A stretch of DNA of 64,000 nt from Verrucomicrobiia bacterium. GTDB taxonomy: Bacteria; Acidobacteriota; Terriglobia; Terriglobales; Acidobacteriaceae. The notes under the pieces are model-generated. The model ran no database searches and was not told where the DNA came from. It saw only the letters and a list, made by a program, of their open reading frames with translations. The stretch covers positions 15,168-79,167 of the forward strand of contig DATMPO010000092.1 of assembly GCA_035567035.1 (NCBI GenBank), written 5' to 3'. A program made the translations under genes and the position numbers. Shown here in pieces: positions 37,484-54,474 of the stretch (its first letter is position 1; each line of letters begins with the position of its first letter).

Positions 37484-40400
37484 CTACGGTTCTTGTTGCT
37501 CTTCCTCCTCATTGCCCGTTCCTGAACTGGGCGCGCCTTCGGACTTGATCTCGATCGGGCCGCCCGCGAACAGCGTGCTCGCCCCGTGTTCCACGGCCTG
37601 TTTGTTGAAGGCCGCCACGTCCGTATTCAGGAAGTTGTTGATCCTGGCCAGCTCGGTATCCAGTTGTTTGCGGACTTCCGCGGCTTCCTCAAGCTGGATG
37701 TCTCTGGGCGCTTCGCCCGAGGACCCCATAACGCTGCGCATCATGCCTTGCAGGCGGTTCTGAAAGCGCTGCAGGTAATGGATGTCGTCCTGGCTGCCGG
37801 GCTGGATCTCACTGTTATAGAGCGGGTCCTGCATGGCGATGATTTTCTTGTCCAGGGCCCGCGCCTGTTCGAGCACAGGTCTGTACGAGACGTTGGTTGC
37901 TCCGTCCTGTCCTTCGTCAGGGCCCAGGAGCTCCTGCAAGCTGGCAATCTGTTTGTGCAGGCTGTTGAGACGGTTCAGCGCGTTGTGCAGGGCGGAAACT
38001 TCATCGCGCAACTGGAGCCCCAGGTTGAACTGCGCGCGCAGAGCGTTGTCGTCAAACTTGAAGCGCGGATCCATCCCGACTTCCACGGTCTGTGTTTCGG
38101 TTTTGCCGTTCACGGTCACTGCTATTTTGTAGGTCCCAGGCAAGGCGTTGGGGCCGATGCTGGGATCGAAGAAAAATTCCTCCTCGTCGCCTCTTTCCGG
38201 CGGAGGCAGGAAGTTCAGTTTCTTGGGACCGTCATAGCGCAGGTTCCAGGCTGCGCGGTTCACGCCGTACTTGCTCGGGCCGTACATGGTGCGGATGACT
38301 TGTCCGCCGCTGTCTGAAATTGTGATTTTTACCGCCGTCTCGCCTTGCGCTCTCCGGCGCGGGCGGTCAGCGTTCTCTTTGTTGTCTTTGATTTCAGCCG
38401 GCAAGTAGTACGTGATGACCGCGCCGGACATCGGATTGGGCGCTACGTACCCGCCGGACGCGAAGCCATGTTTGCTCCAACTGTGCCAGTTGACCGCCGG
38501 CTGCAGGGGATAGAGATGGAAGTCGCTCTTCGCGAGATCGGCCCCGCTCTCTTCCAGAGGCGTGATGTCATCCAGCACGAAAAGGCCGCGGCCGTGTGTG
38601 GCCACCACCAGGTCGTGGGTCTTTTTAATGAACTTCACGTCATAAATCGGCACTGTCGGGAAATTGCTCTTGATGGGCGTCCAATGCGCGCCGTCGTCGC
38701 TGGAGTAGAACACGCCGGTGTCCGTTCCCAGGACCAGGAAGCCTTTGCGATTCGGGTCCTCGCGGACTACGCGGGCCGGATCTTCCTGTGGCAGGCCGTG
38801 GGCAATCGACGTCCAGGTCTTGCCGCCGTCGTGAGTCTTGAAAACGTAAGGTTTGTTGTTTTCAACTTCGTGGAAGTCTACCGCCACGTACGCCGAGTTG
38901 ACATCGCTGGGTGAGGCGTCAATCTGCTGAATGCGTCCCCATTGCGGCAGGTTGGCCATGGCGGACGTTACGTTGTTCCAGCTCTTGCCTCCGTCACGCG
39001 TTACCTGCACCACTCCGTCATCGGTGCCGACCCAGATGGTCTTCGGGTCGAGCGGAGAGATGGACATGGAAAGAATAGCGCCAACGGTTTCCGCGCCGCT
39101 CAGGTCGAGAAAGATTGGGCCGCCGCTGCTCTGCTGCTTGGTTTTGTCGTTGCGCGTAAGGTCGGGGCTGATCGGGGTCCAGTGAGCGCCGCCGTCCGTC
39201 GAGCGGAACACGACGTTGCCGCCCAGGTAAACCTCATTCGGATCGGTGGCGGAGACAGCAATCGGCGAAGTCCAGTTAAAGCGATATTTCAGGTCGGCGG
39301 GCTTCATGGACTGCACGCCCTGCAGATACGGACGGACAAAGCTGGACATGCCGTTTTCATTGTTCAGCCGCTGGATGGACCCGTTCTGGGAATCGGTGTA
39401 AACCACGTGTGTGCCCTTGCCGCGGGCCGGCACAACGTATTCACCGTCGCCGCCGGTCACCGTGTACCACTCAAAACCGCTAATGCCGCCGCGGCTCAGG
39501 CTGTTGGACGGTCCGCACCAGCCATTGTTGTCCTGCAGGCCGCCGCAGAGGTTGTAGGGAGTCTCGTCGTCTTCGGCCACCGAATAAAACTGCTCAATCG
39601 GAAGATTGTCCAGATAGCGCCAGGTGCGGCCGGCATCTGCGCTGATGTAAGCTCCACCGTCGTTGCCGTTGATGATGCGGTTGGGATCTTCCGGATCAAT
39701 CCACATTGCATGATGGTCCACGTGGACGCGCGCCGACGTGGCACGCGCGGTCTTGCCGCCATCTTCCGACAGCATAATGTTGAACGACAGGAAATACACC
39801 TTGTTCTCGTCTTTGGGAGAAACCATCAGCTCGCTGAAGTAGAACCCGCGCGCCGCCAGAAGGTGATTGTTGCTTACCATCTTCCAGTGGTCGCCCAGGT
39901 CCGTGGTGTCGTAGAGAACGCCCTTCTTGTTTTCCACCAGCGCGTACACGTGCCGCGGATTGCTGGGAGCTGCGCCGAGGCCGATGCGTCCCGTGGCCCC
40001 TTCCGGCAGGCCTTCGCTGAGTTTCTTCCAGGTATTGCCGCCGTCCACCGAGCGGAAAATGCCGCCGCTGGTGCCGCCGTCTTCGAGCGCCCAGGGGTAG
40101 CGACGCATGTGCCACAGTCCGGCAAAGAGCACCATAGGATTGCCGGGGTCCATGACCAGCGAGCTGACGCCGGTTTCATCGTCCACGAAGAGAACCTTCT
40201 GCCAGTTTTTCCCGCCATCGGTCGTACGGAAAACGCCGCGCTCGGTGTTCGGGCCCCAGGCATGTCCCAGCACGCCGACGAACACGATGTTCGGGTCGCC
40301 GGGATCGATCACAATGTTGGAAATCTGTCCGGCATCTCGCAAGCCCATGAACTTCCACGTGGCGCCCGCGTCGGAAGAAAAGTAAACACCTTTGCCGGTG

Positions 40401-40792
40401 ATCAGGTCATTCCGCGGGTTCTTTTCGCCGGTGCCCACCCAGACCAGGCTGGGATTCGAAGGGGCCAGGGCAATCGCTCCGATGGAAGCCGTGGACTCCT
40501 TCTCAAAGATGGCTTTCCAGGAAAGCCCGCCATCCTGGGTGTACCAAACGCCGCCGCCGGCAGCGCCCGCATAGTAGACGTTGGGCTTGCCGGGAATTCC
40601 CACCACCGCGGTGACGCGTCCTCCGCCCACAGCGGGGCCAAGGTTGCGGAACTTCATGTTCTCCAACGGGTCTTTGGATTTAGTGTCAGCCGATTTGGTG
40701 TCTTCGGGTTTTTGCTCCTGCGCGGAAATCACGGCGGTTGCCATGCACGCTGCAGCTGCGACAATGGACATCAGTTTCAATAGTGTTTTCAT
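37484..40792 (-). CDS. Sortilin/VPS10-type BNR-repeat (GH74-like) secreted protein
   Basis: ATG 40792 gives signal peptide MKTLLKLMSIVAAAACMATAVISA. At least 10 SxDxGxTW-type BNR motifs (TQDGGLSWK, SSDAGATWK, TTDGGKNWQ, SVDGGNTWK, STDGGAHWT, TRDGGKSWN, THDGGKTWT, SSDDGAHWT). Confidence 0.8.
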   Translation of the reverse strand: MKTLLKLMSIVAAAACMATAVISAQEQKPEDTKSADTKSKDPLENMKFRNLGPAVGGGRVTAVVGIPGKPNVYYAGAAGGGVWYTQDGGLSWKAIFEKESTASIGAIALAPSNPSLVWVGTGEKNPRNDLITGKGVYFSSDAGATWKFMGLRDAGQISNIVIDPGDPNIVFVGVLGHAWGPNTERGVFRTTDGGKNWQKVLFVDDETGVSSLVMDPGNPMVLFAGLWHMRRYPWALEDGGTSGGIFRSVDGGNTWKKLSEGLPEGATGRIGLGAAPSNPRHVYALVENKKGVLYDTTDLGDHWKMVSNNHLLAARGFYFSELMVSPKDENKVYFLSFNIMLSEDGGKTARATSARVHVDHHAMWIDPEDPNRIINGNDGGAYISADAGRTWRYLDNLPIEQFYSVAEDDETPYNLCGGLQDNNGWCGPSNSLSRGGISGFEWYTVTGGDGEYVVPARGKGTHVVYTDSQNGSIQRLNNENGMSSFVRPYLQGVQSMKPADLKYRFNWTSPIAVSATDPNEVYLGGNVVFRSTDGGAHWTPISPDLTRNDKTKQQSSGGPIFLDLSGAETVGAILSMSISPLDPKTIWVGTDDGVVQVTRDGGKSWNNVTSAMANLPQWGRIQQIDASPSDVNSAYVAVDFHEVENNKPYVFKTHDGGKTWTSIAHGLPQEDPARVVREDPNRKGFLVLGTDTGVFYSSDDGAHWTPIKSNFPTVPIYDVKFIKKTHDLVVATHGRGLFVLDDITPLEESGADLAKSDFHLYPLQPAVNWHSWSKHGFASGGYVAPNPMSGAVITYYLPAEIKDNKENADRPRRRAQGETAVKITISDSGGQVIRTMYGPSKYGVNRAAWNLRYDGPKKLNFLPPPERGDEEEFFFDPSIGPNALPGTYKIAVTVNGKTETQTVEVGMDPRFKFDDNALRAQFNLGLQLRDEVSALHNALNRLNSLHKQIASLQELLGPDEGQDGATNVSYRPVLEQARALDKKIIAMQDPLYNSEIQPGSQDDIHYLQRFQNRLQGMMRSVMGSSGEAPRDIQLEEAAEVRKQLDTELARINNFLNTDVAAFNKQAVEHGASTLFAGGPIEIKSEGAPSSGTGNEEEEQQEP

Positions 40793-40919
40793 AAACAGCT
40801 CCCAGGCATCAATGATGCGACCGCGAATCATACCGCAAATGCGGGTGCCTTGGCTTCCCACCCGGAGCAGGCCGTGTGACCCGACTGTCTAGCCGCCCCA
40901 ACCGCTCGGCCGATTCCCT

Positions 40920-41230
40920 GCTAACAGGGAAAATAACAGGGGAGAACGCGAGCGCTTGGATACTCCAGACATGCAAAACCTCGATTCCACGGGCCTTTCG
41001 TGAACCTTTTTCCCGGACGGAGTCGATTCGTAACAGGGAGCGAACAGGGAAGGAACAGGGAAGGAACAGGGGGGAATCGCCGTGATCGCACGTGATCGCC
41101 GTCATCGGAGCCATTTGCTATTTGCCAATTGCTTCTTTCTGGCTGATTGCTGACTTGCTTTCTTCCGATCTGCGTCATCTGCGTTATCAGCGGTATGTTT
41201 TTCTGGCTTTTGTTTTTTGCCATTCGCTTG
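40920..41230. repeat. Composite patch of short tandem/degenerate repeats
   Basis: AACAGGGA(A/G) units (40923-40948, 41031-41072), GTGATCGC x2 plus GTCATCGG (41082-41108), a fragment of the GCAAATAGCAAAT MITE arm (41111-41158), and CTGCGTCAT/CTGCGTTAT/CAGCGGTAT (41167-41193). Confidence 0.7.
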
Positions 41231-41345
41231 TTTTTCCCTCCAAAGTTCGCGCATGGTACCGCGAAACTCTTGCGAAAAGCAATAGCAAAGTTGTCCATGT
41301 TTTCAATGAGTTACGCGATGGCCGCTTTTTCCGTTTTTACTGGCT

Positions 41346-41567
41346 TTAAACCCGATTCGAATCCCACGCCGGCGGCCCAAGGGGTTCGCGATGGCTCGCG
41401 ATTCCCGCCTCCACGTCCTTGGCAAAATCCTCGTCCAGAGTGGCCGTCGAGCCATGCTCCCGCGCCACGCGCAATGACTCAGACAGCAAGCGCACGGAAG
41501 GCTCGACCGGATGAACCACGGCCACAGGAAGGCCAAACAACCAAGAAACTCTATCTCCGACAGGCTC
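41346..41567 (-). pseudogene. Possible remnant of an AbrB/SpoVT-type antitoxin C-terminal half
   Basis: Frame open from stop at 41568-41570. GDRVSWLFGLPVAVVHPVEPS...LDEDFAKDVEAGIASHREPL resembles VapB/MazE-type tails. No N-terminal half, no ATG, no RBS. Confidence 0.25.
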
Positions 41568-41790
41568 TCAGGCCGTCCCCATTTTTCTTGGTGAACGTCC
41601 CGTCTGTCCCCGTCGGTCCCCGCAGTTGGCGAAATCGCGCCTTTATTGAGTCACCAGTTTCACCGATGTAGATAAGCCCCACTTGACCGTGGCAGCGAAG
41701 CCGATATAGGCCAGGACTATCTGCACCTCTTACCTCGTCCAATCGGTGCCACTCAGACCATGCGTGCTTTTCCCACGATGCCGACTGCAC
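41551..41790 (-). pseudogene. Truncated GIY-YIG nuclease-domain fragment
   Basis: PGLYRLRCHGQVGLIYIGETGDSIKARFRQL matches the GIY...YIG...R motif order. The reading frame then runs into GGGGAC-type repeats (41576-41622) and stops. GTG-only start. Confidence 0.45.
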
Positions 41791-41824
41791 GTCATCTGAG
41801 ATCGGGCATCGCGAGAAACCCTGC

Positions 41825-42418
41825 TTACCGGCCCGGCCTGGCGGCCTTGCGTTTGTCTTTTTCAGCTATCAGTAGCCCGCCCAGGCTCCAGAGGAATTTG
41901 TCGAGTTGCTTGAAGGTGACTGAAGTCAGGCCGTAGAAGGTGCGAAAAGCCGTTACCACTTTGACGAACTGCTGATACGAATAGCTCCCACGACGGTAGG
42001 TTGTGAAGTGGTCTTGCTTTTTGTACGACCAAAGACATTCATCGACATAGCGGTCATATAGGGGGTAAGCGGTGGGGTTGTGCCAACTGCAAAACTTCGA
42101 CCCAAAGGAAAAGTATTTTTCCTTGAGTACGCCACAGTTGATGATGTCATCGACCACAGCGGATTTGCCTTCAGCGAGGGCCGCGTCGATGTGAAGTCCC
42201 GTTATGTGGCGCGCAACGGTGTCAACATACTTCTTAGGAATTCCTGCGCCGTAGAGGTTATTGACCGCCACAACCTTTAGCAGGACGTGGGAGTTCTCGG
42301 CGTTGTGAGGAAAGGCGCGCAGGAGTTGCCCGAGTGCCTCCTCGATCACTCGGTACTCGCTGTTGAATTTATCGCCTTCAGCGTTGACGAGTTCGACAGT
42401 TGGAGGCGGCAGCAGCAC
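41825..42418 (-). CDS. Hypothetical protein (197 aa), no confident family assignment, possibly decaying
   Basis: The ORF contains no Met codon. The only start option is GTG at 42418, without a Shine-Dalgarno. About 40% GC in a sampled line. FGSKFCSWHNPTAYPLYDRYVDECLW and KQLDKFLWSLG segments are the most conserved-looking parts. Confidence 0.4.
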   Translation of the reverse strand: MLLPPPTVELVNAEGDKFNSEYRVIEEALGQLLRAFPHNAENSHVLLKVVAVNNLYGAGIPKKYVDTVARHITGLHIDAALAEGKSAVVDDIINCGVLKEKYFSFGSKFCSWHNPTAYPLYDRYVDECLWSYKKQDHFTTYRRGSYSYQQFVKVVTAFRTFYGLTSVTFKQLDKFLWSLGGLLIAEKDKRKAARPGR

Positions 42419-42607
42419 CGGTTTATTCTAACGGATGGCGCTCCCTGCGCGGCATTGTACCGGCCACGACGGCGGGCCAGAATGTGGCGCACGCGGGTCG
42501 CCCCGGTTTACTTTGCGGTCTTCGTCTTACCAGCCACGCGGGCGCCGCTAAGTGCAAACCACGGGTACGGCCCGTGAAAAAACCTCAGCGTGGCGGCAGG
42601 CGGGTCT

Positions 42608-42775
42608 TTTAAAACGCGCTTTTTTTCTGTTCCATGATGTGCAGTCGCCCGTCCAGGTTCGCAATCATCTTGCAGAGGACTTCGGTCGTTGGATTGCGTT
42701 CAATCGGGCCGTGGGTAACGCCATTGGCAAACTCGATTGAGATTGTCTTGTCGGTCACGTTCAATATCGCTGGCA
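42608..42775 (-). CDS. Small hypothetical protein (55 aa), not in the ORF track
   Basis: Hand translation: MPAILNVTDKTISIEFANGVTHGPIERNPTTEVLCKMIANLDGRLHIMEQKKSAF, stop TAA 42608-42610. AAGGAGGGAAG lies upstream of the ATG at 42775. Sits just after the R-M operon terminator. Confidence 0.45.
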
Positions 42776-42806
42776 TCTTTGTGTCTTCCCTCCTTTATTC
42801 GATTGA

Positions 42807-42829
42807 GAAAAGGGGTCAGCCCCATTTTT
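42807..42829 (-). terminator. Probable intrinsic terminator of the R-M operon
   Basis: Minus-strand RNA AAAAAUGGGGCUGACCCCUUUUCUC. GGGG/CCCC stem extended by A/U pairs, then a U-rich tail, about 50 nt after the endonuclease stop. Confidence 0.4.
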
Positions 42830-42876
42830 CGCAGACTTTGCATGGCGGCATAGAACGTGTTGTAAACCCGGTCCGG

Positions 42877-43608
42877 TTAGTTTTCCTCGTTGTCACTGTC
42901 GTCGCTGTCTTGCTCCGTACCAGTGGCGGTCGGCGGCTTCTTCGGTTTGACGACCTTGCCGGTCTCGTAGAACGTGGTCAGGGACGCGACATACTCCTCA
43001 GGAGCTATCGGATTCTCGCCCAGCTTTTCGGCAAATTTGCGGCCAGGATGCAGAACGTCCCACGCCGAGCGGTATTGATCTTTGCGCCGCACGCCGGGGT
43101 CTTTATTGCCGAATCCGTCTATCACTAGATTCCAGACGGGACGAAATTGCTCGATGAGCATGTTTTCCCCAAGGGGGATAAAAATCTCGTCCACGACCAG
43201 CGCGCGGAACGTGAAATCACCGACCTTCAGGTCCTTGGCCTCTTCGATGGAGGTGTAGTGCTGGCCGATCCGATCGCGTAGCGCCTTGCCTCTCATGGCG
43301 CTGTCGTCATCGGTGAAGCCTCCTTTGCGCCCACCTTTCGGGATCGCCTTGCCGATGTAAATTGGTTGGTTGAACCTGCCTTTCGCATTTTGCTCAGCGA
43401 TAGGCCCGTAGAGGGGGAAGTCCCCGGTGTAGTAGATGATGTAGACCCCTGCTCCACCCAGATCATCAGTCTTGGACATTGGGCGCGGTTCTTGATCCAG
43501 GATCGCACGCACGATGCTTTCCGCGAGATTCCTTTTTTGGAGCGGGTTGTATGGTCTATCGTGGTTCAACGATTCCTCGCGCGCATTATTTTTTTTCGGG
43601 CGCCACAT
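42877..43608 (-). CDS. Eco29kI-family (GIY-YIG) type II restriction endonuclease
   Basis: 243 aa. GAGVYIIYYTGDFPLYGPI, PIYIGKAIPKGGRKGG, IDGFGNKDPGVRRKDQYRSAWDVLHPGR match the RE_Eco29kI pattern as remembered. Acidic tail DSDDSDNEEN. Start overlaps the dcm 3' end by 23 nt. Confidence 0.7.
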   Translation of the reverse strand: MWRPKKNNAREESLNHDRPYNPLQKRNLAESIVRAILDQEPRPMSKTDDLGGAGVYIIYYTGDFPLYGPIAEQNAKGRFNQPIYIGKAIPKGGRKGGFTDDDSAMRGKALRDRIGQHYTSIEEAKDLKVGDFTFRALVVDEIFIPLGENMLIEQFRPVWNLVIDGFGNKDPGVRRKDQYRSAWDVLHPGRKFAEKLGENPIAPEEYVASLTTFYETGKVVKPKKPPTATGTEQDSDDSDNEEN

Positions 43609-44776
43609 CGATCGATTTTGCTCGGAGCGTTCCGGCTACCGACGCCGCGATCCCTTCGGCAAGCCGGACCGGCACCGCATTGCCCAATTGACGCATGGCC
43701 TCTGTCCAAGCTCCGCGGAAAGTATAGTCGTCCGGGAATGTCTGGAGCCGTGCCGCCTCTCGCACGGTGAAATACCGCACGGATCCATCCACGCGCGCAA
43801 GCATGTTTTCCCCGCCGGGCACGCCGTGATCGCCCGCCTTGAGTGTTTTCGCGGGCTCGTCGAGCGGACTGCCAGTGTGACCGGGGTAGGCCCGCGCACC
43901 GGGATTGAAGGTGTGGTTCGGAATTTCGCACCGCAGATTTCTCTCTGGGTCCGGTAAATCTCCGATCGCGTCCCGCACTGTCACCCATGGCAACTTGCCG
44001 GCGTCGAACAAGTAGTCTGTGCGGAGTCTTTCAACGCGCGACGCTAGGCGCTCAGTAAGCTTCGGCCGTTGCTGCCTGCCAACCTTGTGTCGATCCCAAT
44101 ACTCGCCGGTTATCCATTGCGAGCGCAGCAAAGTACTCTCCGAGTACTGGCCCTCCGGGAAGCTCCATTCCACGCCGAGATCGGAACGGAATCCGACGAG
44201 AAACACGCGCTCGCGGCGCTGGGGCACTCCGTAATTAGCGGCGTTGAGCAGCCGAAAGACCACGTTGTATTCCGTTCGATCCCGCATCGATGTGTGGTAC
44301 TTTTCAAGCCGCGCCCGGTGCTCCCTCCAAGTTTCAGACTTGCGGTGTATAAAACTCGGATGCGTGAGCTGCAAATGGATGTATTCGAAATAGTCGGCGA
44401 ACGATTCCCGCAACAGGCCCTTGACATTCTCGAAGATGAGCGCCTTCGGCCGCAATTCGCGCACCGCGCGCACAGCTTCGGGAAACATATCGCGCTTATC
44501 CATGTAACCGCGGTGCTTCCCGCCAAGTGAGAACGGTTGGCACGGAGGCCCGCCGGACACCACCATGACATCGTTGAGCCTACCGTAGTCGAATTTCTTG
44601 ACATCGCCCTCGTAGAGCGGCCATTCCTCGACGGATCGTATCCGGTGCCGTTGGTTTTCACGGAATGTCTCGCAGGCGTCGTGATCCCACTCGATCACCG
44701 CAGCGTGATGAAATCCCGCGTTCGACATGCCGATCGCGAGCCCCCCGGCACCGGCGAACAATTCAACACTCCGCAT
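43586..44776 (-). CDS. dcm: DNA (cytosine-5)-methyltransferase
   Basis: 396 aa. ELFAGAGGLAIG (motif I), GGPPCQPFSLGGK (motif IV), ENVKGL (VI), QRRERVFLVG (VIII), GNAVPV (X). Confidence 0.95.
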   Translation of the reverse strand: MRSVELFAGAGGLAIGMSNAGFHHAAVIEWDHDACETFRENQRHRIRSVEEWPLYEGDVKKFDYGRLNDVMVVSGGPPCQPFSLGGKHRGYMDKRDMFPEAVRAVRELRPKALIFENVKGLLRESFADYFEYIHLQLTHPSFIHRKSETWREHRARLEKYHTSMRDRTEYNVVFRLLNAANYGVPQRRERVFLVGFRSDLGVEWSFPEGQYSESTLLRSQWITGEYWDRHKVGRQQRPKLTERLASRVERLRTDYLFDAGKLPWVTVRDAIGDLPDPERNLRCEIPNHTFNPGARAYPGHTGSPLDEPAKTLKAGDHGVPGGENMLARVDGSVRYFTVREAARLQTFPDDYTFRGAWTEAMRQLGNAVPVRLAEGIAASVAGTLRAKSIDVAPEKK

Positions 44777-45215
44777 TGAGAAACCTCCTTATCCTTGACT
44801 GCAGGCGCGCTGCGTCCTTAACATGGCACTCCCAAATCGTGAGCACCTTCCATCCCTGTTTCGCCAGGGTGCGCTTAACTCTTCGATCACGTATCTTATT
44901 ACCTTCGAGTTTCGGAACCCAGAAATCCAGCCGAGACTTGGGCAACCGAGCCAGCGCACAAGCCGCATGCCGATGCCAGAAGCACCCATGAACGAAGATA
45001 ACCTTTCGCGCCTTTCTGAAAACGAGGTCCGGGTGACCCGGTAAATCCTTCGCGTGAAGCCTGTATCGGTATCCAAGGGCGAAAACAAGCTTGCGAACGA
45101 ACAACTCCGGTCGCGAGTTCTTCGAACGGACTCGCCCCATGATCTCCGATCTCTCTGCAGGAGAAAGACTGTCCACACGCTCTACGCTCCTTGTGAGCCG
45201 CCAAAAAGCGGCCAT
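44763..45215 (-). CDS. vsr: Very-short-patch repair endonuclease
   Basis: 150 aa. RSEIMGRVRSKNSRPE, PGHPDLVF, IFVHGCFWHRH, NKIRDRR. 14-nt overlap with the dcm start. Confidence 0.9.
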   Translation of the reverse strand: MAAFWRLTRSVERVDSLSPAERSEIMGRVRSKNSRPELFVRKLVFALGYRYRLHAKDLPGHPDLVFRKARKVIFVHGCFWHRHAACALARLPKSRLDFWVPKLEGNKIRDRRVKRTLAKQGWKVLTIWECHVKDAARLQSRIRRFLNAEC

Positions 45216-45361
45216 TTGCCTGAGATATATTGCTCAGTCGCCTCGCGAACTACCCACGCGAGCGAAACCTTCTTTTCCTTGGCAATGGCTTCGAGCGTCT
45301 CGTAAATATCAGGTGGAAAGCTGATCGATGCGCGAACTGCGGCAGGGCTTTGGGTCTTCAT
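45182..45361 (-). CDS. Ribbon-helix-helix (CopG/Arc/MetJ) protein, 59 aa, first gene of the R-M operon (not in ORF track)
   Basis: Hand translation: MKTQSPAAVRASISFPPDIYETLEAIAKEKKVSLAWVVREATEQYISGKWPLFGGSQGA. GGGAGAG about 10 nt upstream of the ATG at 45361. Beta-strand/helix/helix pattern of the RHH family. Overlaps the vsr start by 34 nt. Confidence 0.7.
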   Translation of the reverse strand: MKTQSPAAVRASISFPPDIYETLEAIAKEKKVSLAWVVREATEQYISGKWPLFGGSQGA

Positions 45362-45411
45362 CTTTGTTGTGCTCTCCCTTTCTGGCCTTCATCCTTGCGG
45401 ACGTTGATTGT

Positions 45412-45446
45412 GTTCACCACTTTACACCATGTCGGTGAACCCTTAA
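45412..45446 (-). promoter_or_regulatory. Candidate promoter with inverted-repeat operator for the RHH operon
   Basis: On the minus strand: TTAAGG-16 nt-TAAAGT. Inverted repeat GTTCACC (45412-45418) / GGTGAAC (45434-45440) straddles the -10 element. Confidence 0.3.
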
Positions 45447-45484
45447 AAGGATACTTCAGGCTGCCCCAATCGGCCTACCTGAAG
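45446..45484 (-). terminator. Probable terminator of the TIR gene
   Basis: CTTCAGG / CCTGAAG 7-bp stem (45454-45460 / 45478-45484) followed on the minus strand by UAUCCUUUUAAGG. Begins 25 nt after the TIR stop. Confidence 0.4.
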
Positions 45485-45508
45485 TCGGGTTGCGGAAAGC
45501 GACCAGAT

Positions 45509-46501
45509 TCAGGCCTTGGGAGACTTTGGTGGGGTGGCCGGCCGAAGCAATTTTTTCTGCGCTGACTCCTTCCACCACCCCTCGACGGATTCAAATTTTG
45601 CGACCACCTCATTGCCCACAAGAACAACGACTTGACCTATGGCGGTTTCGGCGGCGACTGTCCCTTCTACTCTCTTAATCTTCGAATCACCAACAAGTTT
45701 CACATAGAACGTTGCCGTGGGGCCTCGCGGAGGTGGTGGTGGTGGTGGGCTCGGAAGCAGCTGGTCAGGTCTTACACCCTTAAGTAATTCGACTAACGAC
45801 GGTATGAAGTCTTTGAGATCCAGGGCATACTTATCCATCCATTCCGATTGCTTTCGACTATTTGCCGTTGCGCGAGTTAACTCAAGGACCTCAGCAATCA
45901 TATCGTCGATTGAGGGTAGCGGTTTTGCCAGCTCCTCGGACTGGGGCATTGCTCCAAGATGTGATTCCAGGTCCGGCCACATTTTGTCGAAGATTATGTC
46001 TAAGTGTTCCTTTGGAAGAACGTCTTGGCCGATGGCTCTGTTAATCGTATGCATCAGCTTTCTGGTGTCGTCCTGCTCGGGCTTGGTGCGCTGAAACATG
46101 CCCAACGGGCCTCTAAGATGTTGGATCTGGAGACCGGCTAAGAGGTAAGTGCAGATCCTGCTCTTGTCGTCTACTTCCTTGGCGAGAACTCCCGCCTCAT
46201 ATGAGATCCACGACGAATCCCGATTCTCGGGAGTAAGGAAGAGTACGCCCACCTTCGTTCCAGTAAGCGCCTTCTTTATCTCATCCAATCCCACTGTTCC
46301 TTTATCGATATCTATATCAGACAGCCATGGCTTCGCTCGATGGAGAACCTTCGGCATCCAATCACGGAAAAACTTCGCCACGTATAGGCTTCTCTCCCCT
46401 GACCAGGAGAGGAAAACGTTGTGCATTTGGGCGGCTTCTCGATTGGATTTGGGCATGTTTCGCTGCATTCTATCAAAGGTGACTTTCTGCTTTTGCATCA
46501 A
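45509..46501 (-). CDS. TIR-domain protein with helical middle region, poly-Pro linker and unassigned C-terminal domain
   Basis: VFLSWSGERSLYVAKFFRDWMPKVL...PWLSDIDIDKGTV...VGVLFLTPENRDSSWISYEAGVL follows the TIR order (compare plant VFLSFRGEDTR and S.W...E). Likely start is the ATG at 46426 (MHNVFLSW) or 46456. PPPPPPP at residues ~262-270, then a beta-rich ~60 aa tail. Confidence 0.65.
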   Translation of the reverse strand: MMQKQKVTFDRMQRNMPKSNREAAQMHNVFLSWSGERSLYVAKFFRDWMPKVLHRAKPWLSDIDIDKGTVGLDEIKKALTGTKVGVLFLTPENRDSSWISYEAGVLAKEVDDKSRICTYLLAGLQIQHLRGPLGMFQRTKPEQDDTRKLMHTINRAIGQDVLPKEHLDIIFDKMWPDLESHLGAMPQSEELAKPLPSIDDMIAEVLELTRATANSRKQSEWMDKYALDLKDFIPSLVELLKGVRPDQLLPSPPPPPPPRGPTATFYVKLVGDSKIKRVEGTVAAETAIGQVVVLVGNEVVAKFESVEGWWKESAQKKLLRPATPPKSPKA

Positions 46502-46730: not shown

Positions 46731-47117
46731 TCAGCCCTGCTCGCGCGCTGAGGCGATGAATTCTTCCATCTGGCGCAGGTATTTTTCGAATGCTTTGCGG
46801 CCTTGCGGCGTGAGTTTGTATTCGGTGCGGGGGACGCGGCCTTCGAAGCCCTTCTTGCAGCGGACGTAGTCGGCTTCTTCCAGTTTGCGGGCGTGGACGC
46901 TCAGGTTACCGTCAGAGGTTTTTAAGACGCGCTTCAGATCGTTGAAGGTGAGGGAATCGTTGACCGCGAGCGCGCTGACAATGCCCAGGCGTATGCGCTC
47001 GTAGATCAGGCGGTCGAGCTCCGGCAGTTCGCGCGGCGGGTGCGCCGGCCGGTGGCGGGCGTCGCGCACTTTGGCTTGATGGACTGTTTTTTCCGCCGGT
47101 TTGAGTTTGGCTTTCAT
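46731..47117 (-). CDS. Winged-helix (HTH_34/MarR-like) transcriptional regulator
   Basis: 128 aa. ERIRLGIVSALAVNDSLTFNDLKRVLKTSDGNLSVHARKLEEADYV. Confidence 0.7.
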   Translation of the reverse strand: MKAKLKPAEKTVHQAKVRDARHRPAHPPRELPELDRLIYERIRLGIVSALAVNDSLTFNDLKRVLKTSDGNLSVHARKLEEADYVRCKKGFEGRVPRTEYKLTPQGRKAFEKYLRQMEEFIASAREQG

Positions 47118-47733: not shown

Positions 47734-47781
47734 GAGGGAAGGATAGGACGGTGGTGCGGTGGAGTCAAGTACTTTGTCAGA

Positions 47782-47953
47782 AAAAGCAAATAGCAAATAG
47801 CAATTGGCAATTAGCCAAACCTGGTTATTTTAAACCGCAAAGGTCGCGAAGGACGCAAAGGGAAGAACGGATCAGCCACGAATCAGCACGAATAGGCAAG
47901 TGTACTTGAGTTTGCTCTGGCTGATTGCCAATTGCCATTTGCTATTTGCTTTT
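47782..47953. mobile_element. MITE-like element with 36-nt terminal inverted repeats (34/36 identical)
   Basis: Left arm AAAAGCAAATAGCAAATAGCAATTGGCAATTAGCCA. Revcomp of right arm AAAAGCAAATAGCAAATGGCAATTGGCAATCAGCCA. About 100-nt core with CGCAAAGG/CGCGAAGG units. No ORF. Confidence 0.75.
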
Positions 47954-47956
47954 TTC

Positions 47957-48625
47957 CTACCCCACCGCACTCGAGCAATGTTCGTGCAGGACGCGCAGTT
48001 TGCCGTCGGGATCGCGGCGAAAGACCTGGCTTACGCGGCCGTGAGGGATTTCTTCTTCCTGCAGGGTCCCGCGGGCCGTGGCCCGGTTCAGGGCGCGGAA
48101 GTGAAAAGCATAGATGGCCAGCGCCGTGGTTTCACTCAGCAGGACCACTTCAATCGCGCCGAGTTCCATGTTGGTGATGCAGGCTTCGTGAAAATACTCG
48201 CGCGTTCGTTGCGCAATGCCCTTAAACCCGGGCTCAACCGTCACGGATTCCACGCGGAACGACACGCTGTTGAAGGCATAGGCGTCCGCCAGTTCTGCGG
48301 ACGACTTGGCAGTCCAGGCGTCCCAAAGGTTGCTGACAGCGGCGCGGACCTCGTCCGGTGTGACCCGTTGGGAGTGGCCCGGGACGCCGTTTTCAGGTTT
48401 CGCTCCGTTCGCCTGGGACCTTTGCAGGTCCTTTTGCGAAGGGTCGGGGACGGCAAAATGCGCTGATTCAGGCTTCATTTTTATTTCGACGATCATTAGA
48501 GCTTTTTCATGGTCATTTCGCCAGAGTACCAACGTAACGTGTTGGAGACGGCCGCTTGGAAACGGGCAATAGACCCTTACTTCTTTGGACATTCCTTTGG
48601 ACGCAGCAGAGGAAGTCGTTGCCAT
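47957..48625 (-). CDS. SnoaL-like / DUF4440 (NTF2-fold) protein, start uncertain
   Basis: C-terminal ~125 aa (VRAAVSNLWDAWTAKS...RVSQVFRRDPDGKLRVLHEHCS) looks NTF2-like. Candidate starts at 48625, 48592, 48496 and 48478, none with a clear RBS. Confidence 0.45.
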   Translation of the reverse strand: MATTSSAASKGMSKEVRVYCPFPSGRLQHVTLVLWRNDHEKALMIVEIKMKPESAHFAVPDPSQKDLQRSQANGAKPENGVPGHSQRVTPDEVRAAVSNLWDAWTAKSSAELADAYAFNSVSFRVESVTVEPGFKGIAQRTREYFHEACITNMELGAIEVVLLSETTALAIYAFHFRALNRATARGTLQEEEIPHGRVSQVFRRDPDGKLRVLHEHCSSAVG

Positions 48626-48929: not shown

Positions 48930-51365
48930 ATGAAACTGTTCTATCGCGCCAGCTTCGCGCTGGTGTTTGCCTTGGCCGTGGTTTCCGCGTTGGCCGCCGA
49001 GTCCGGCAGCATTCGCGGTTCCGTTACTGATCCGCTCGGCGCCGCCGTGCCGAACGCAACCGTGAAGTTACTCCAGCAGGGAAGACAAACAGCCGTCACC
49101 ACAAGCGGCAAAGACGGCACGTACAAATTCAGTGCGCTCGCTGTCGGCCGCTACCAGGTCAGCGCCGAAGCCGCGACCTTCACCATGCAATCGAGCCCGC
49201 CGGTTTACGTGGGTGGCGGCGAATCGGAAGTCAACATTGCTTTGGCGCTGGGGAGCGTGGAACAGCAGGTCGTGGTCACCGACACCGGAACGCAGATACC
49301 GGAGACGCAGGTTGGCGCTTCGGTTACCGTGATCACCAGCGACCAATTCCAGAACAAGCTGGACGTGTTCGAGCCTCTGCGGCAAGTCCCGGGCGCGCAG
49401 ATTGTCCAGACCGGCCAGCGCGGCGGAGCAACTTCATTGTTCGTGCGCGGCGGCAACAGCACCGCGAACAAGGTCCTGGTGGACGGAATCCCGTTGAACG
49501 ACATTGGCGGCGTGGTCAACTTTGGTTTGCTGGCCACCAGCGGCGTGGAACAGGTTGAGGTGTTGCGCGGCCCCAACAGCGTGCTCTATGGGTCGGACGC
49601 CATGGCCGGCGTCGTGAGCCTGACCACGCGCCGGGGAACAACGCCGTTGCCGGAGCTTTCGTACGAGTTCGACGGCGGGAATTTCAATTCGCTGCGCCAT
49701 GACGCTTCTCTGGGCGGAGCGTTTCACCGTCTGGACTACTTCGGCGAATTCTCGCGCTTCGACACCGGCAACAGCGAGCCCAGCAGCGAGTTTCACAACG
49801 CGAGCTATCTGGGTAATGCGGGATTCGCGATCAATTCCTCGACGGACCTGCGTGTGACGGCGCGGCGCACAACCTCGGCGATCGGTCTTCCCAATGCCAT
49901 TGATTTTTTCGGTATTCCCGATGACCAGTTTCAAAAAGACCAGGACGCCTACATCGGCGTGACGCTCCAGAACCAAACCACCCCGCACTGGCACAATCTG
50001 GCCCGCTATGGAGCTACGCGGCTGCGCCTGCTCTTGGAGAATCCCGCGCCTGCGGGCATTCCGGATGGGTTCGGAGATTTTTTTGGCAACGTTGTGACCA
50101 TCCGGGGAGCCAACGGTTTCAGCGCCACGGGCCAGGCTATTCTGAACTTTGCTGGCGGCACTTTTCCCTCGCTCTTCAACAGCTCGACCGCCCGGGATTT
50201 TGGGTATTTCCAATCCGACTACAGTTTCAATTCGCATCTGACGGCGTTGTTCGGGTTTCGCATGGAGAATGAGCGCGGATACACCCTGTCGTCGTTCGCG
50301 AAAAATCTCGCGGACCGCACGAATTACAGTTACATCGGCGAGGTGCATGGCAGCCTGGGAAGCCGGGTCTATGCCACCCTGGGCGGTTCAGTGGAGAACA
50401 ACGCAGTGTTCGGCGTCGCGGTCACGCCGCGCGTTTCGCTGGCGTACTACCTGTTCCGTCCGAACTCCGATGGCCCGTGGAACGGGACCAAGCTGAAATT
50501 CAACTACGGCCAGGGGATCAAGGAGCCGTCCATCTTTGATGCCACGTCGTCCTTGTTTGGGCTGCTGTCGCAGGTCCCGAATGGCCCGCAGCTTATTTCG
50601 CAGTTTCACGTCAGGCCTGTAAATGCGGAGAGGTCGCGCAGCTTCGATTTCGGCGTGGAACAATTATTCTGGAATGGAAAAGGCAAGCTGGCGGAAACTT
50701 TCTTCCACAACCGGTTCACCAACCAAATCGAGTTTGTAGACCCCTCGGCTTTTCCCCAACTGGGAGTGCCGCCCTCGGTCCAGGCGCTGGCGCCGTTTGG
50801 CGCTTCGATCAATTCCGCGGACACGCGGGCCCTGGGCGCGGAAACCGAATTGGAATTCAATTTCGGCCGCGGTTTCCGGGCGAGGGGCGCTTACACATAT
50901 CTGGACGCGGTGGTAGAGAGGTCTTTTACGAGCGACAACCTTGTTATTCCGGTTATGAATCCGAACATTCCCAATGTGCCGATCGGCGCATTTTCTCCGC
51001 TGAAGGGAGGCAGGCCGTTCCGGCGCGCGCCGCACACGGGAAGCTTTACGCTGGACTATTCCCGGTCCCGGCTTGCGCTATCGTTCAGCGGATACCTGGT
51101 TAGCCGGCGCGATGACAGCACGTTTCTAACTGATTCGTTTTTCGGCAACACGCTGCTGTTGCCCAACCGCAACCTGGCGCCGGGATACCAGAAGCTCGAC
51201 TTCGGCGGCAGTTACCGTCTGAATCGCCACCTGGCGTTGTATACCAGCGTGGAGAACCTGGCGAGCCAGCACTATGACGCCGCGTTCGGCTTCCCGGCGC
51301 TGCCCCTGACGTTGCGCTCGGGGCTGAAGGTCACGCTGGGAGGGGAATCGTGGAAATGGCGTTAG
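48930..51365 (+). CDS. TonB-dependent receptor with N-terminal CarboxypepD_reg domain, riboswitch context suggests corrinoid uptake
   Basis: 811 aa with signal peptide. GSIRGSVTDPLGAAVPNATVKLL (carboxypeptidase-regulatory fold). Plug motifs VVVTDTG, LFVRGGNS, VDGIPLND. Long beta-barrel. Confidence 0.85.
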   Translation: MKLFYRASFALVFALAVVSALAAESGSIRGSVTDPLGAAVPNATVKLLQQGRQTAVTTSGKDGTYKFSALAVGRYQVSAEAATFTMQSSPPVYVGGGESEVNIALALGSVEQQVVVTDTGTQIPETQVGASVTVITSDQFQNKLDVFEPLRQVPGAQIVQTGQRGGATSLFVRGGNSTANKVLVDGIPLNDIGGVVNFGLLATSGVEQVEVLRGPNSVLYGSDAMAGVVSLTTRRGTTPLPELSYEFDGGNFNSLRHDASLGGAFHRLDYFGEFSRFDTGNSEPSSEFHNASYLGNAGFAINSSTDLRVTARRTTSAIGLPNAIDFFGIPDDQFQKDQDAYIGVTLQNQTTPHWHNLARYGATRLRLLLENPAPAGIPDGFGDFFGNVVTIRGANGFSATGQAILNFAGGTFPSLFNSSTARDFGYFQSDYSFNSHLTALFGFRMENERGYTLSSFAKNLADRTNYSYIGEVHGSLGSRVYATLGGSVENNAVFGVAVTPRVSLAYYLFRPNSDGPWNGTKLKFNYGQGIKEPSIFDATSSLFGLLSQVPNGPQLISQFHVRPVNAERSRSFDFGVEQLFWNGKGKLAETFFHNRFTNQIEFVDPSAFPQLGVPPSVQALAPFGASINSADTRALGAETELEFNFGRGFRARGAYTYLDAVVERSFTSDNLVIPVMNPNIPNVPIGAFSPLKGGRPFRRAPHTGSFTLDYSRSRLALSFSGYLVSRRDDSTFLTDSFFGNTLLLPNRNLAPGYQKLDFGGSYRLNRHLALYTSVENLASQHYDAAFGFPALPLTLRSGLKVTLGGESWKWR

Positions 51366-52493: not shown

Positions 52494-54371
52494 ATGCAGC
52501 AATTGAGAAGGTTGTTGGGCTTTGTCCGGCCATACTTGCCGCAGTTGATTGCTTCCATTGTGTTCATGGCAGTGGCCGGGTTCATGGAGGCATTCCGCCT
52601 GCTTCTGATGGGGCCGATTCTTGGCCCGGTGTTGAATCCTTCCCAGCGCACCGATAGCGTCCCCCTGGTGAGTTTTTCGGGATCCAGGCACGTCATCTAT
52701 CTACAGCAATTCATTCCGCATCATTTTCACAATGTTCTGACGGTTGTGGCCGTGGCGTTGATCGGTTCCACGGTCATCAAGGGCGTGTCCGATTATCTGG
52801 GCACATACCTGGTGAATTATGCGGGGCTGGGTATGGTCACCGACCTGCGCAACAAGCTGTACCGGAGCCTGTTGTACCGGTCCGTGGGTTTCTTCTCCCG
52901 CCACACCACGGGCACGCTGGTTTCGACAGTTATCAATGACATAGATAAAGTGCAAGTCACGCTCTCCACGGTACTGGCGGAATTTCTGTTGCAGGTTTTC
53001 ACCCTGATCTTCACCGTCGTCGTGGTGATTGCCACGGGCAAGCAGCTGGCGTGGATCCTGCTGTTGTTCATTCCGTTTGTGATGATCTCCGCCGGCAGGA
53101 TCGGGCGCCGGGTGCAGCAGACCACGCGCAAAGGCCAGGACAAGCTGGCCGACATCCAGAACATTCTGCATGAGAGCATTGCCGGCAACCGCATTGTCAA
53201 AGCGTTCAGCATGGAGGCTTCGGAGAGCACGCGCTTTTTCGCCGCGGCGAAAAAACTGTTCCGGGCAAACCTGCGACTGGCGCGCGCCCAGGCGACCAGC
53301 GGGCCGCTCATGGAGATCATTGCAGCCGCCGGCGTGGCGTTGCTGCTCTGGCTGGGCCGCGGTTTGATTAAGAACGCGGTATTTACAGACAGCAGCCAGT
53401 TCTTTGTTTTCATCATTGCCGTCTTCAGGCTTTACGATCCCATCCGGAAGTTTGCTTTCTTCCACAACAGTTTCCGCCAGGCCCTGGGCGCTTCAAGTGA
53501 AGTTTTCCGCATTCTGGACGAGGCGGACGAGATCAAAGAACGGCCCGGCGCCACGGTCCTGCCGGGATTTCATGACAAGATCTCTTTTGAAGACGTGGGC
53601 TTCACCTATGCGGCGCAGAACGGGAATAATCCGCCGGTGCTGCGCGGCGTCAATCTCGAGGTGAGCGCCGGGGAAGTGGTGGCGATTGTTGGTTCCAGCG
53701 GCGCGGGCAAGAGCACGCTGGTGCAGATGGTCCCGCGATTTTTTGACGTGAGTTCAGGGTCGCTGAAAATTGACGGCCATGACGTCCGCGACGTGACGCT
53801 GGCTTCGCTGCGGGCGCAGATCGGCATCGTGACGCAGGAGACCATCCTGTTCAACGACACGGTGCGCGACAACATCGCGTACGGACAGTCCAACGTGTCC
53901 CAGGAAGCGGTGATTGAAGCCGCGAAGGCGGCGCTGGCCCATAGTTTTATTCTGCGGCTGCCGGAAGGCTACAACACCGTCATCGGCGAAAAAGGCCTGC
54001 GTCTCTCCGGTGGCGAGCGCCAGCGTATTGCCATTGCCCGAGCGCTCCTGAAGAACGCTCCTATCCTTATATTGGACGAAGCCACGTCCGCCCTGGACAA
54101 CGAATCGGAGTCCCTGGTGCAATCCGCGCTGCAGAACCTGATGGTCGGACGCACGGTGCTGGTCATTGCCCACCGGCTTACCACCATCCGGCGCGTGGAC
54201 CGCATTGTAGTCCTGGAGTATGGCCGGATCACCGATTCCGGCACGCATGACGACCTGTTGACCCGCCTGGGTACCTACCGCAAATTATATGAATTGCAGT
54301 TTATGAACATTGAGCCGAAAATGAGTGAAGCAGCCGCCGGGGTTATAATTCCCGAGCCGCACACAACGTGA
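52494..54371 (+). CDS. ABC transporter permease/ATPase, MsbA-like lipid exporter
   Basis: 625 aa. Six-TM N-terminal domain, Walker A GSSGAGKST, signature LSGGERQRIAIARAL, Walker B ILILDEATS. Confidence 0.85.
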   Translation: MQQLRRLLGFVRPYLPQLIASIVFMAVAGFMEAFRLLLMGPILGPVLNPSQRTDSVPLVSFSGSRHVIYLQQFIPHHFHNVLTVVAVALIGSTVIKGVSDYLGTYLVNYAGLGMVTDLRNKLYRSLLYRSVGFFSRHTTGTLVSTVINDIDKVQVTLSTVLAEFLLQVFTLIFTVVVVIATGKQLAWILLLFIPFVMISAGRIGRRVQQTTRKGQDKLADIQNILHESIAGNRIVKAFSMEASESTRFFAAAKKLFRANLRLARAQATSGPLMEIIAAAGVALLLWLGRGLIKNAVFTDSSQFFVFIIAVFRLYDPIRKFAFFHNSFRQALGASSEVFRILDEADEIKERPGATVLPGFHDKISFEDVGFTYAAQNGNNPPVLRGVNLEVSAGEVVAIVGSSGAGKSTLVQMVPRFFDVSSGSLKIDGHDVRDVTLASLRAQIGIVTQETILFNDTVRDNIAYGQSNVSQEAVIEAAKAALAHSFILRLPEGYNTVIGEKGLRLSGGERQRIAIARALLKNAPILILDEATSALDNESESLVQSALQNLMVGRTVLVIAHRLTTIRRVDRIVVLEYGRITDSGTHDDLLTRLGTYRKLYELQFMNIEPKMSEAAAGVIIPEPHTT

Positions 54372-54374
54372 TAC

Positions 54375-54474
54375 AAAGCAAATAGCAAATGGCAATTAGC
54401 CAAAGCAGTCCGACTGCCTTGATAGACTGGTCTGGACAATTGCTAATTGCTAATTGCTCAATTCGCTAAGTTGC
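54375..54474. repeat. Degenerate copy of the GCAAATAGCAAAT/GCAATTAGC MITE family
   Basis: AAAGCAAATAGCAAATGGCAATTAGCCAAAG on the left. CAATTGCTAATTGCTAATTGCTCAATTCGCTAAGTTGC (inverse orientation) on the right. Confidence 0.6.

Follow-up and report, generated by a model that had tools for sequence, protein, structure and literature searches.

Do the defence-like genes stacked on one strand of a soil acidobacterial chromosome constitute a single immune system, or have they come together by chance? This question is raised by a 64,000-nt stretch of DNA (the window) from a metagenome-assembled genome (MAG), in which an island at 41551-46501, lying between a Sortilin/BNR-like gene and the gene for a winged-helix regulator, encodes a TIR-domain protein, a restriction–modification (R-M) operon and several orphan open reading frames (ORFs). 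A first-pass annotation described the island as a candidate composite or undescribed defence locus. The composite part of this description is upheld by our analysis, while action as a unit is not, as no co-occurrence of the island genes was found among 156 TIR loci. We consider the locus to be a patchwork of independently acquired mobile modules that do not cooperate, gathered at a variable site upstream of the Sortilin/BNR-like gene (probability about 0.7). The modules, namely a stand-alone TIR protein, an ordinary R-M operon and a half-decayed two-gene cassette, would be together by chance. The island genes, in transcription order, and the two genes that bound them are as follows.

46731-47117, minus strand: winged-helix (wHTH) regulator gene, bounding the island on one side.
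45509..46501, minus strand: TIR-domain protein, 330 amino acids (aa) from a TTG start (PADLOC PDLC03016).
45182..45361, minus strand: RHH (CopG-type) leader gene (PF01402 at 1.1e-4, just above the cut-off).
44763..45215, minus strand: Vsr endonuclease (PF03852 2.7e-28; TIGR00632 1.9e-43; PADLOC Vsr).
43586..44776, minus strand: C5 cytosine DNA methyltransferase (MTase), Dcm-type, type II (PF00145 8e-61; PADLOC MTase_II 8.5e-135; TIGR00675).
42877..43608, minus strand: Eco29kI-family GIY-YIG type II restriction endonuclease (REase) (PF09517 2.6e-56; PDB 3MX4 1.5e-32).
42609..42776, minus strand: orf55, an ORFan of 55 aa preceded by a strong Shine-Dalgarno sequence, gene status unproven.
41825..42418, minus strand: orf197, 197 aa, intact, PF27257 (HI_0787_N) by a precomputed Pfam label.
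41620..41809, minus strand: pseudogene remnant of a 147-aa GIY-YIG-like partner of orf197, recognized by homology to genes of loci L157 and L166.
37484-40861, minus strand: Sortilin/BNR-like gene, bounding the island on the other side.

All credible ORFs between the two bounding genes lie on the minus strand, and every ORF listed previously was recovered at its annotated position. The earlier family calls (TIR, RHH, Vsr, C5-MTase and GIY-YIG REase) also hold in Pfam, PADLOC, NCBIfam and PDB comparisons. The assignments of Vsr, Dcm and REase from sequence are firm, with scores far above the respective cut-offs for PF09517 (190 bits vs 30.8) and PF03852 (98 vs 27), and with TIGR00632 (147.6 vs 97.85) and TIGR00675 above theirs as well; that of the RHH protein is adequate, and that of the TIR protein is weak in Pfam and strong in PADLOC.

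Could the whole island nevertheless be one integrated, undescribed system, in which a TIR effector would cooperate with the orphan ORFs and the R-M operon? The genes stand side by side in a single orientation, and as a group they have the lowest GC content of the neighbourhood. Moreover, no canonical TIR partner (ThsA, CD-NTase, Argonaute, STING or STAND) was detected by PADLOC among the island genes and the two genes beyond them, which agrees with what had been noted before. The distribution of the genes largely refutes such cooperation. In 156 TIR-homolog loci, gathered by scans of genome and metagenome collections, tblastn gave zero matches to the RHH, Vsr, Dcm, REase, orf55, orf197 and GIY-YIG fragment sequences, and clustering of the neighbouring ORFs revealed no recurrent TIR neighbour beyond close-strain synteny; the conserved co-occurrence in other genomes on which the first-pass annotation had made its proposal depend is thus missing. 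The R-M module occurs on plasmids without the TIR gene, the orf197 cassette occurs elsewhere without either the TIR gene or this R-M operon, one of the components is a pseudogene, and the modules are separated by gaps of 100-230 nt that contain hairpins. Cooperation of the whole island as one system is therefore scarcely credible.

The TIR protein most likely acts alone, as a self-contained unit, an option that had been raised at the outset and that is now favoured. It is best read in this way because no neighbour is conserved in the 156 loci and because a 288-aa member of the same family is the sole cargo gene of a mobilisable 4747-bp plasmid of Serratia marcescens (NZ_CP091124, locus L178). 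Other family members are found on other small plasmids, for example a 14-kb Acidithiobacillus plasmid. The 50 homologs found come mostly from soil Acidobacteriota, and the spread of the family across phyla and plasmids is scattered and patchy.

The protein, whose length varies with the gene call (330 aa from the TTG start, 319 aa in Logan, 329 aa at NCBI), consists of a TIR domain (residues ~27-140), a conserved helical extension (~143-240), a PPPPPPP linker (~252-258) and a six-strand beta domain (263-311). The PADLOC model PDLC03016, named 'TIR-TM', matches it at 3.8e-49, with residues 28-214 corresponding to profile positions 2-193 of 293. The Pfam TIR_2 match (7e-4) lies below the cut-off, and a profile built from the family matches AtTIR and AbTIR at E ~0.03. 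Across 26 family members W98 and E102 never vary, and in alignments they fall on the catalytic W..E motif (SSWCLDEL of AtTIR and KDWTNYELDG of AbTIR). The core shared by the family comprises the TIR domain and the helical extension up to about residue 215, and the tails beyond it are hypervariable, forming 71 clusters among 123. The transmembrane segment implied by the name 'TIR-TM' was considered and rejected, as a hydrophobic transmembrane-like stretch is present in only 1 of 148 family members and is located there in the beta domain; a literature search for "TIR-TM" yielded nothing relevant for bacteria. The AlphaFold2 model of the protein has a mean pLDDT of 56, its sole confident part being the beta domain (263-311), and Foldseek searches with this low-confidence model returned mostly TIR domains, including the SpbK filament structure 9phb.

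SpbK is an example of a TIR protein that acts as an abortive-infection system by itself. By analogy, the tail of the window protein (the proline-rich linker and small beta domain) or its helical part may sense an infection cue, upon which the triggered TIR domain would oligomerize and consume NAD+, leading to abortive infection. The protein may, on the other hand, be a maintenance or exclusion factor of plasmids or other mobile elements, or an NAD-linked cellular signalling protein, rather than an anti-phage effector. The neighbours of TIR homologs (150 sampled) are mostly housekeeping genes, with few PADLOC matches (1 of 150 matches PycC), the gene on the Serratia plasmid overlaps the rep stop codon by 4 nt, which would suit a maintenance gene, and the link of the family to phages is not experimental. 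Such roles fit less well with the strong match to an HMM for a defence component, with the conserved catalytic Glu and with the hypervariable tails on a conserved catalytic core, which together with the patchy distribution are typical of defence genes; in addition, the same genome site holds other TIR genes in a relative. A role outside phage defence is therefore considered unlikely, and the TIR protein is better regarded as a candidate self-contained anti-phage effector.

The second module, RHH-vsr-dcm-R, is, judging from its genes, a conventional mobile type II R-M operon. The true start of vsr is likely the GTG at 45176, which gives a protein of 137 aa and lies 5 nt past the RHH stop codon, and dcm overlaps vsr by 14 nt, while its own end falls within the REase gene or immediately ahead of it; the description of these four genes as an overlapping RHH-Vsr-MTase-REase operon stands in that they are tightly packed or overlapping. 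In systems of this kind, methylation by the C5-MTase shields the host's own DNA, incoming DNA without it is cut by the Eco29kI-family GIY-YIG REase, and Vsr repairs the T:G mismatches left by deamination of 5-methylcytosine. A vsr-dcm-R operon on a Paraburkholderia aromaticivorans plasmid (NZ_CP051517) encodes an REase with 52% identity to that of the window; this operon adjoins an integrase gene and repeats the vsr-dcm-R order and overlaps seen in the window. Dcm-REase pairs of this family are also present on Halomonas and Corynebacterium plasmids.

The leader gene of the operon has relatives in a different R-M setting. A 64-aa RHH homolog with 65% identity is encoded on a Xanthomonas phaseoli plasmid (NZ_CP029285; locus L182, 3534-6606). 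In this, the only such operon inspected, the RHH gene overlaps the 5' end of a gene for an N6-MTase with an Eco57I-type domain, which is followed by a BsuBI/PstI-family REase gene; the match at 65% identity recurs on 36 Xanthomonas plasmids. Since a leader DNA-binding gene is common to unrelated R-M systems, the RHH protein probably serves as a portable regulator of such systems, comparable in function to a C protein. As C proteins do, it would autoregulate its operon and delay expression of the REase after transfer to a new host, and leaders of this type may represent a non-helix-turn-helix class of R-M controllers. For the prototype Eco29kI system, regulation has been reported to work through antisense RNA and reverse promoters, without a leader protein that binds DNA, and in the same source RHH regulators (Omega, PaaR) are described as strict repressors of toxin-antitoxin systems and are not mentioned for R-M (PMC3874152).

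The third module consists of orf197 and the GIY-YIG fragment, which form a cassette of their own, by all appearances unrelated to the TIR gene. Neither these nor the remaining orphan maps to a named defence system in PADLOC, a possibility that the first-pass annotation had envisaged. In the two closest lineages, with orf197 homologs at 67-77% identity, an intact GIY-YIG-like gene encoding 147 aa comes next, and the intact cassette stands in one case beside a Bpu10I-Dcm-Vsr R-M system in a prophage-like region and in the other beside AbiEii. In the window the downstream gene is a remnant, 80-89% identical to residues 8-64 of the intact genes (L157 and L166). A 2-nt deletion follows the ancestral ATG (41809), which puts that start codon out of frame, and homology stops abruptly at ~41620, the C-terminal half being missing; the earlier recognition of a broken GIY-YIG gene is thereby borne out, and the 79-aa ORF annotated at 41551-41790 on the minus strand lies within or extends this remnant. 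As the putative nuclease gene is dead, the window cassette is probably non-functional. The GIY-YIG motif (GLYRL...LIYIGETGD) is present, and the Pfam GIY-YIG matches of the fragment (E 0.038) and of one intact homolog (0.094) are below the cut-off, the other homolog giving no match.

Directly downstream of the breakpoint of the remnant, two short overlapping ORFs are found at 41303-41540 on the minus strand, one of which ends ...LDEDFAKDVEAGIASHREPLGPPAWD. No Pfam match was obtained for them, and they may be another gene fragment or non-coding DNA. The ORFs of the whole gap at 40.86-41.55 kb likewise matched no family.

The 197-aa ORF had been left without a family assignment. It belongs in fact to the Pfam family PF27257 (HI_0787_N), a label that the identical protein P0051 carries, as does each of the 120 homologs listed; the family is newer than the local Pfam copy, and the assignment in the window is this precomputed label. 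A literature search on HI_0787 returned nothing relevant. The AlphaFold2 model of orf197 is all-helical (mean pLDDT 94.4), and its top 12 Foldseek matches in the PDB are all 8-oxoguanine DNA glycosylases, albeit as weak matches (best 3n0u, probability 0.99, E 0.077, TM 0.49); a search of viral structures gave weak matches only (E > 0.3). Little or no variation is seen at residues H71, D78, K108, C110-S-W-H113, D122 and D173. Of these, the invariant K108 sits in a helix; next comes a proline-rich loop, and the invariant D122 caps the helix after it. The catalytic Lys and Asp of HhH-GPD enzymes are placed in such a helix-loop-helix-cap arrangement, and K108 and D122 in the modelled structure may recall an HhH-GPD active site.

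PF27257 comprises 2803 representative clusters at E<=1e-3, mostly stand-alone proteins of ~195 aa. Fusions to GIY-YIG were found in none of the 14 longer members, whose extensions are diverse. Searches with orf197 gave no match in plasmid and phage collections and found one IMG/VR contig. Of ten genomic contexts examined, eight are defence or mobile islands, with neighbours such as integrases (L169), a TIR_2 gene and BrxL (L170), a terminase (L160) and HNH and PIN genes (L161), and in two cases the gene stands amid housekeeping genes. At locus L181 (5425-7366; JGI 3300082281 Ga0673043_0000536) it lies between infC (encoding IF3) and rpmI-rplT, a normally invariant cluster, and looks like a selfish insertion.

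Such contexts bear on two views of the cassette. One possibility is that the PF27257 protein and its 147-aa GIY-YIG-like neighbour constitute an undescribed two-gene module, in which the glycosylase-like protein would recognize or excise a (modified) base in foreign DNA and the nuclease would cut at the lesion, the window copy having decayed; this remains a tentative and distinctly improbable proposal. The other is that orf197 and its partner form a selfish homing-type element, that is, a free-standing endonuclease with an accessory protein, and not a defence module. GIY-YIG is a classical homing-endonuclease fold, and at L181 a PF27257 gene separates infC from rpmI. Copies of the cassette with 67-89% identity are found in settings unrelated to one another, and decay of the nuclease gene is typical of such elements after fixation. 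Against this, most PF27257 genes stand alone without a GIY-YIG partner, the contexts are predominantly the defence or mobile islands described above, and the GIY-YIG assignment is itself below threshold. A homing element is possible, although on balance somewhat unlikely, and in either case the cassette is regarded here as one of several independently acquired modules.

The place at which these modules have gathered is best seen by comparison with relatives. The conserved genes of the window have their closest orthologs (80-87% identity) in Candidatus Angelobacter and Terriglobia assemblies, and orthologs of the Sortilin-like protein at 80-85% identity carry the Candidatus Angelobacter name; the window is accordingly assigned to a Terriglobia member near Candidatus Angelobacter. 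The deposited MAG (protein records HWX54917-HWX54922) is labelled Verrucomicrobiae; given these closest orthologs, its label or binning is probably wrong. Three relatives, whose Sortilin-like orthologs are 81-85% identical, keep the gene order of the window from 26.8 to 40.86 kb (enolase, DUF3467, UDG and others). Similarity to all three vanishes precisely where the Sortilin-like gene starts (DNA homology ends at ~40840), and upstream of that gene each carries different, unrelated cargo, which makes the site a variable hot spot. In one of them (locus L172, 5353-9595; ENA ERZ27254089 k141_76394; Sortilin-like ortholog 82% identical) the equivalent position holds three TIR-domain genes unrelated to that of the window, encoding CAP12-PCTIR_TIR (432 aa), pentapeptide-repeat-TIR (363 aa) and a 218-aa TIR protein, which suggests that the hot spot repeatedly collects TIR cargo. 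No clean empty site was obtained, the three relatives being syntenic on one side only.

The DNA between the end of synteny and the island also contains repeats. In the non-conserved stretch just upstream of the Sortilin-like gene, at 40923-41071, AACAGGG (CCCTGTT on the minus strand) occurs six times in two groups with a spacing of ~11-12 nt, a pattern that could reflect either a binding array for a regulator or a portion of some repeat element. Further out, copies of a repeat resembling a miniature inverted-repeat transposable element (MITE) were found at three positions.

41100..41290, minus strand: MITE-like repeat copy of ~190 nt with heptad-repeat termini, at the Sortilin-gene end, ~330 nt from the GIY-YIG remnant.
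47770..47960, plus strand: second copy, past the wHTH and TM225 genes, its 37-nt inverted arms showing 95% complementarity.
54360-54470 (54.4 kb): third copy.

The termini consist of heptad repeats (GCCATTTGCTATTTGC...), and the motif has 11 matches in the window against 0.64 expected. The first two copies bracket the segment at 41.3-47.8 kb, which comprises the island and the genes for wHTH and TM225. A Logan contig assembled independently from the same strain breaks off inside each of these two copies, at 41279 and 47820. Flanking direct repeats were considered as att sites and rejected, since only this dispersed heptad/MITE-like repeat was found, which is also present at 54.4 kb. A tRNA or tmRNA integration site was likewise rejected, as neither kind of gene occurs in the whole 64-kb window.

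The island had been described as having a low GC content, and this description proved overstated. GC content is 55.4% in the island and 58.0% in the whole window, placing the island 26th lowest among 591 overlapping windows of the same size, and the mean of 60-nt lines is 55.4% inside and 58.2% outside (Mann-Whitney p = 2.6e-4). The four 60-nt counts on which the description had been based are arithmetically correct, but the lines were cherry-picked. Only the TIR gene is clearly deviant (GC 51.3%, third-position GC 56.8%), lying ~3 standard deviations under the mean of 39 other genes (58.7 ± 2.4%). orf55 (50%) and orf197 (53.5%) are low, while Dcm (59.6%) and REase (55.7%) fall inside the range of the other genes. 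The dip is real but small, and stems mainly from the TIR gene and the intergenic DNA. The notion of an acquired region draws its support from synteny with the three relatives and not from GC content.

It might be asked whether there is an island at all, or only ordinary lineage-specific chromosome with a GC dip within normal variation. The difference of only 2.6-2.8 points, the normal composition of the Dcm and REase genes, the lack of tRNA genes in the 64-kb window, the lack of flanking direct repeats besides the dispersed one, and the lack of any integrase or transposase among the families recognized in the island genes and the genes next to them would all be in keeping with this. The break in synteny exactly at the start of the Sortilin-like gene, with cargo that differs in each relative, is not, and neither are the closest relatives of each module, which are in other phyla or on plasmids, nor the truncated GIY-YIG pseudogene, which marks a recombination breakpoint. 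An ordinary stretch of chromosome is therefore very unlikely, and acquisition of separate modules at a variable site accounts better for the region.

Two terminators had been proposed within the island, one after the TIR gene and one after the REase gene. Neither was flagged by a consensus scan, and terminator-like sites are no commoner than in shuffled sequences.

45445..45485, minus strand: hairpin downstream of the TIR stop codon, trailed by a U-rich stretch; it may be a weak intrinsic terminator.

This hairpin has a 9-bp stem, and the 83-nt stretch around it folds at -28.2 kcal/mol (z = -1.6 vs shuffles); a terminator there is plausible, yet not better than shuffles. The hairpin after the REase gene has a 4-bp GC stem and is absent from the minimum-energy fold. 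An Rfam search of the window gave a single match, outside the island, namely a cobalamin riboswitch (RF00174, 48667-48830, 101.9 bits). It lies directly upstream of an 811-aa ORF (48930-51365) that resembles, by eye only, a CarboxypepD_reg/TonB-dependent receptor, and the two would make up an ordinary B12-regulated uptake gene.

The remaining gene candidate, orf55, does indeed have the strong Shine-Dalgarno sequence attributed to it (AAGGAGGG upstream of the ATG). It matched no family in Pfam, PADLOC or NCBIfam, and tblastn of the fetched loci, without a large-database homology search, gave no match except on the same-strain contig; its exact sequence is on record from this MAG only. A RadA protein placed in its 90% cluster was dismissed as a clustering artefact, there being no similarity on inspection. 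By these comparisons orf55 appears to be an unsupported ORFan.

Several points weigh against the reading of the locus as a set of separately acquired, working modules. The NADase and anti-phage activities, the R-M specificity and the regulation by the RHH protein are all properties that we infer. Avoidance of CCGCGG, the Eco29kI site, was tried as a proxy for R-M specificity and gave no indication of it, as the site is not depleted in the window (73 observed vs 68 expected). The role proposed for the C-terminal domain of the TIR protein is a guess, because the structural model of the protein is poor. The TIR family shows no visible enrichment in defence islands, which weakens the defence reading. 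The missing co-occurrence in 156 loci still allows a lineage-specific functional interaction at this locus. Finally, none of the genes to the right of the island was found within <=10 kb in the relatives, which leaves the far boundary undefined.

The locus shows a chromosomal hot spot in poorly studied soil Acidobacteriota that gathers unrelated immunity cargo, and it illustrates that stacked defence-like genes alone are no evidence for a new system. Three leads emerge from it: single-gene TIR proteins, a widespread family whose tails are hypervariable and for which no trigger has been described; an RHH-type leader common, at 65% identity, to unrelated R-M systems in different phyla, possibly a non-helix-turn-helix class of controllers; and the uncharacterized family PF27257, with a predicted OGG-like fold and an occasional GIY-YIG-like partner. 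All the modules belong to known kinds or are mild variants of them, and the remaining novelty resides in three uncharacterized families that are not specific to this locus.

Among known TIR systems, SpbK of Bacillus subtilis resembles the window protein in having a TIR domain with a catalytic Glu and no conserved partner gene, although no SpbK match is listed for the window TIR protein in PADLOC. ThsB of Thoeris shares the TIR domain and catalytic Glu, whereas the ThsB models match the window protein only at E 0.006-0.06 (not significant), no ThsA-like match is present in the island genes and the two beyond, and no such neighbour recurs in the 156 loci. From both SpbK and ThsB the protein differs in its architecture, with a helical extension and a variable tail. 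CBASS, Pycsar, TIR-STING and SPARTA are set apart by their cyclase, Argonaute or STING partners or fusions, which PADLOC did not detect in the same set of genes. The PADLOC model PDLC03016 'TIR-TM' shares the TIR and helical core (residues 28-214), while its last 100 profile positions are unmatched.

Judging from its model, orf197 may share with HhH-GPD or Ogg2-type glycosylases (TM1821, MjOgg) an OGG-like fold and the Lys-loop-Asp arrangement. It differs from them in a Lys-Asp spacing of 14 instead of ~18 residues, in having no sequence match to any PDB chain or to any Pfam or NCBIfam glycosylase, and in the genomic context of PF27257, which is mobile or defence-related rather than devoted to repair.

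The R-M operon resembles Eco29kI in that the REase matches both PF09517 and the sequence of the Eco29kI crystal structure and that the MTase is a C5 enzyme, and it differs from the Paraburkholderia vsr-dcm-R operon, which lacks an RHH gene, in having one before vsr. Like the C proteins of type II R-M systems, the product of this gene is a small DNA-binding protein encoded first in a tightly coupled operon, while its RHH/CopG fold (PF01402), in place of a helix-turn-helix, sets it outside the C-protein family.

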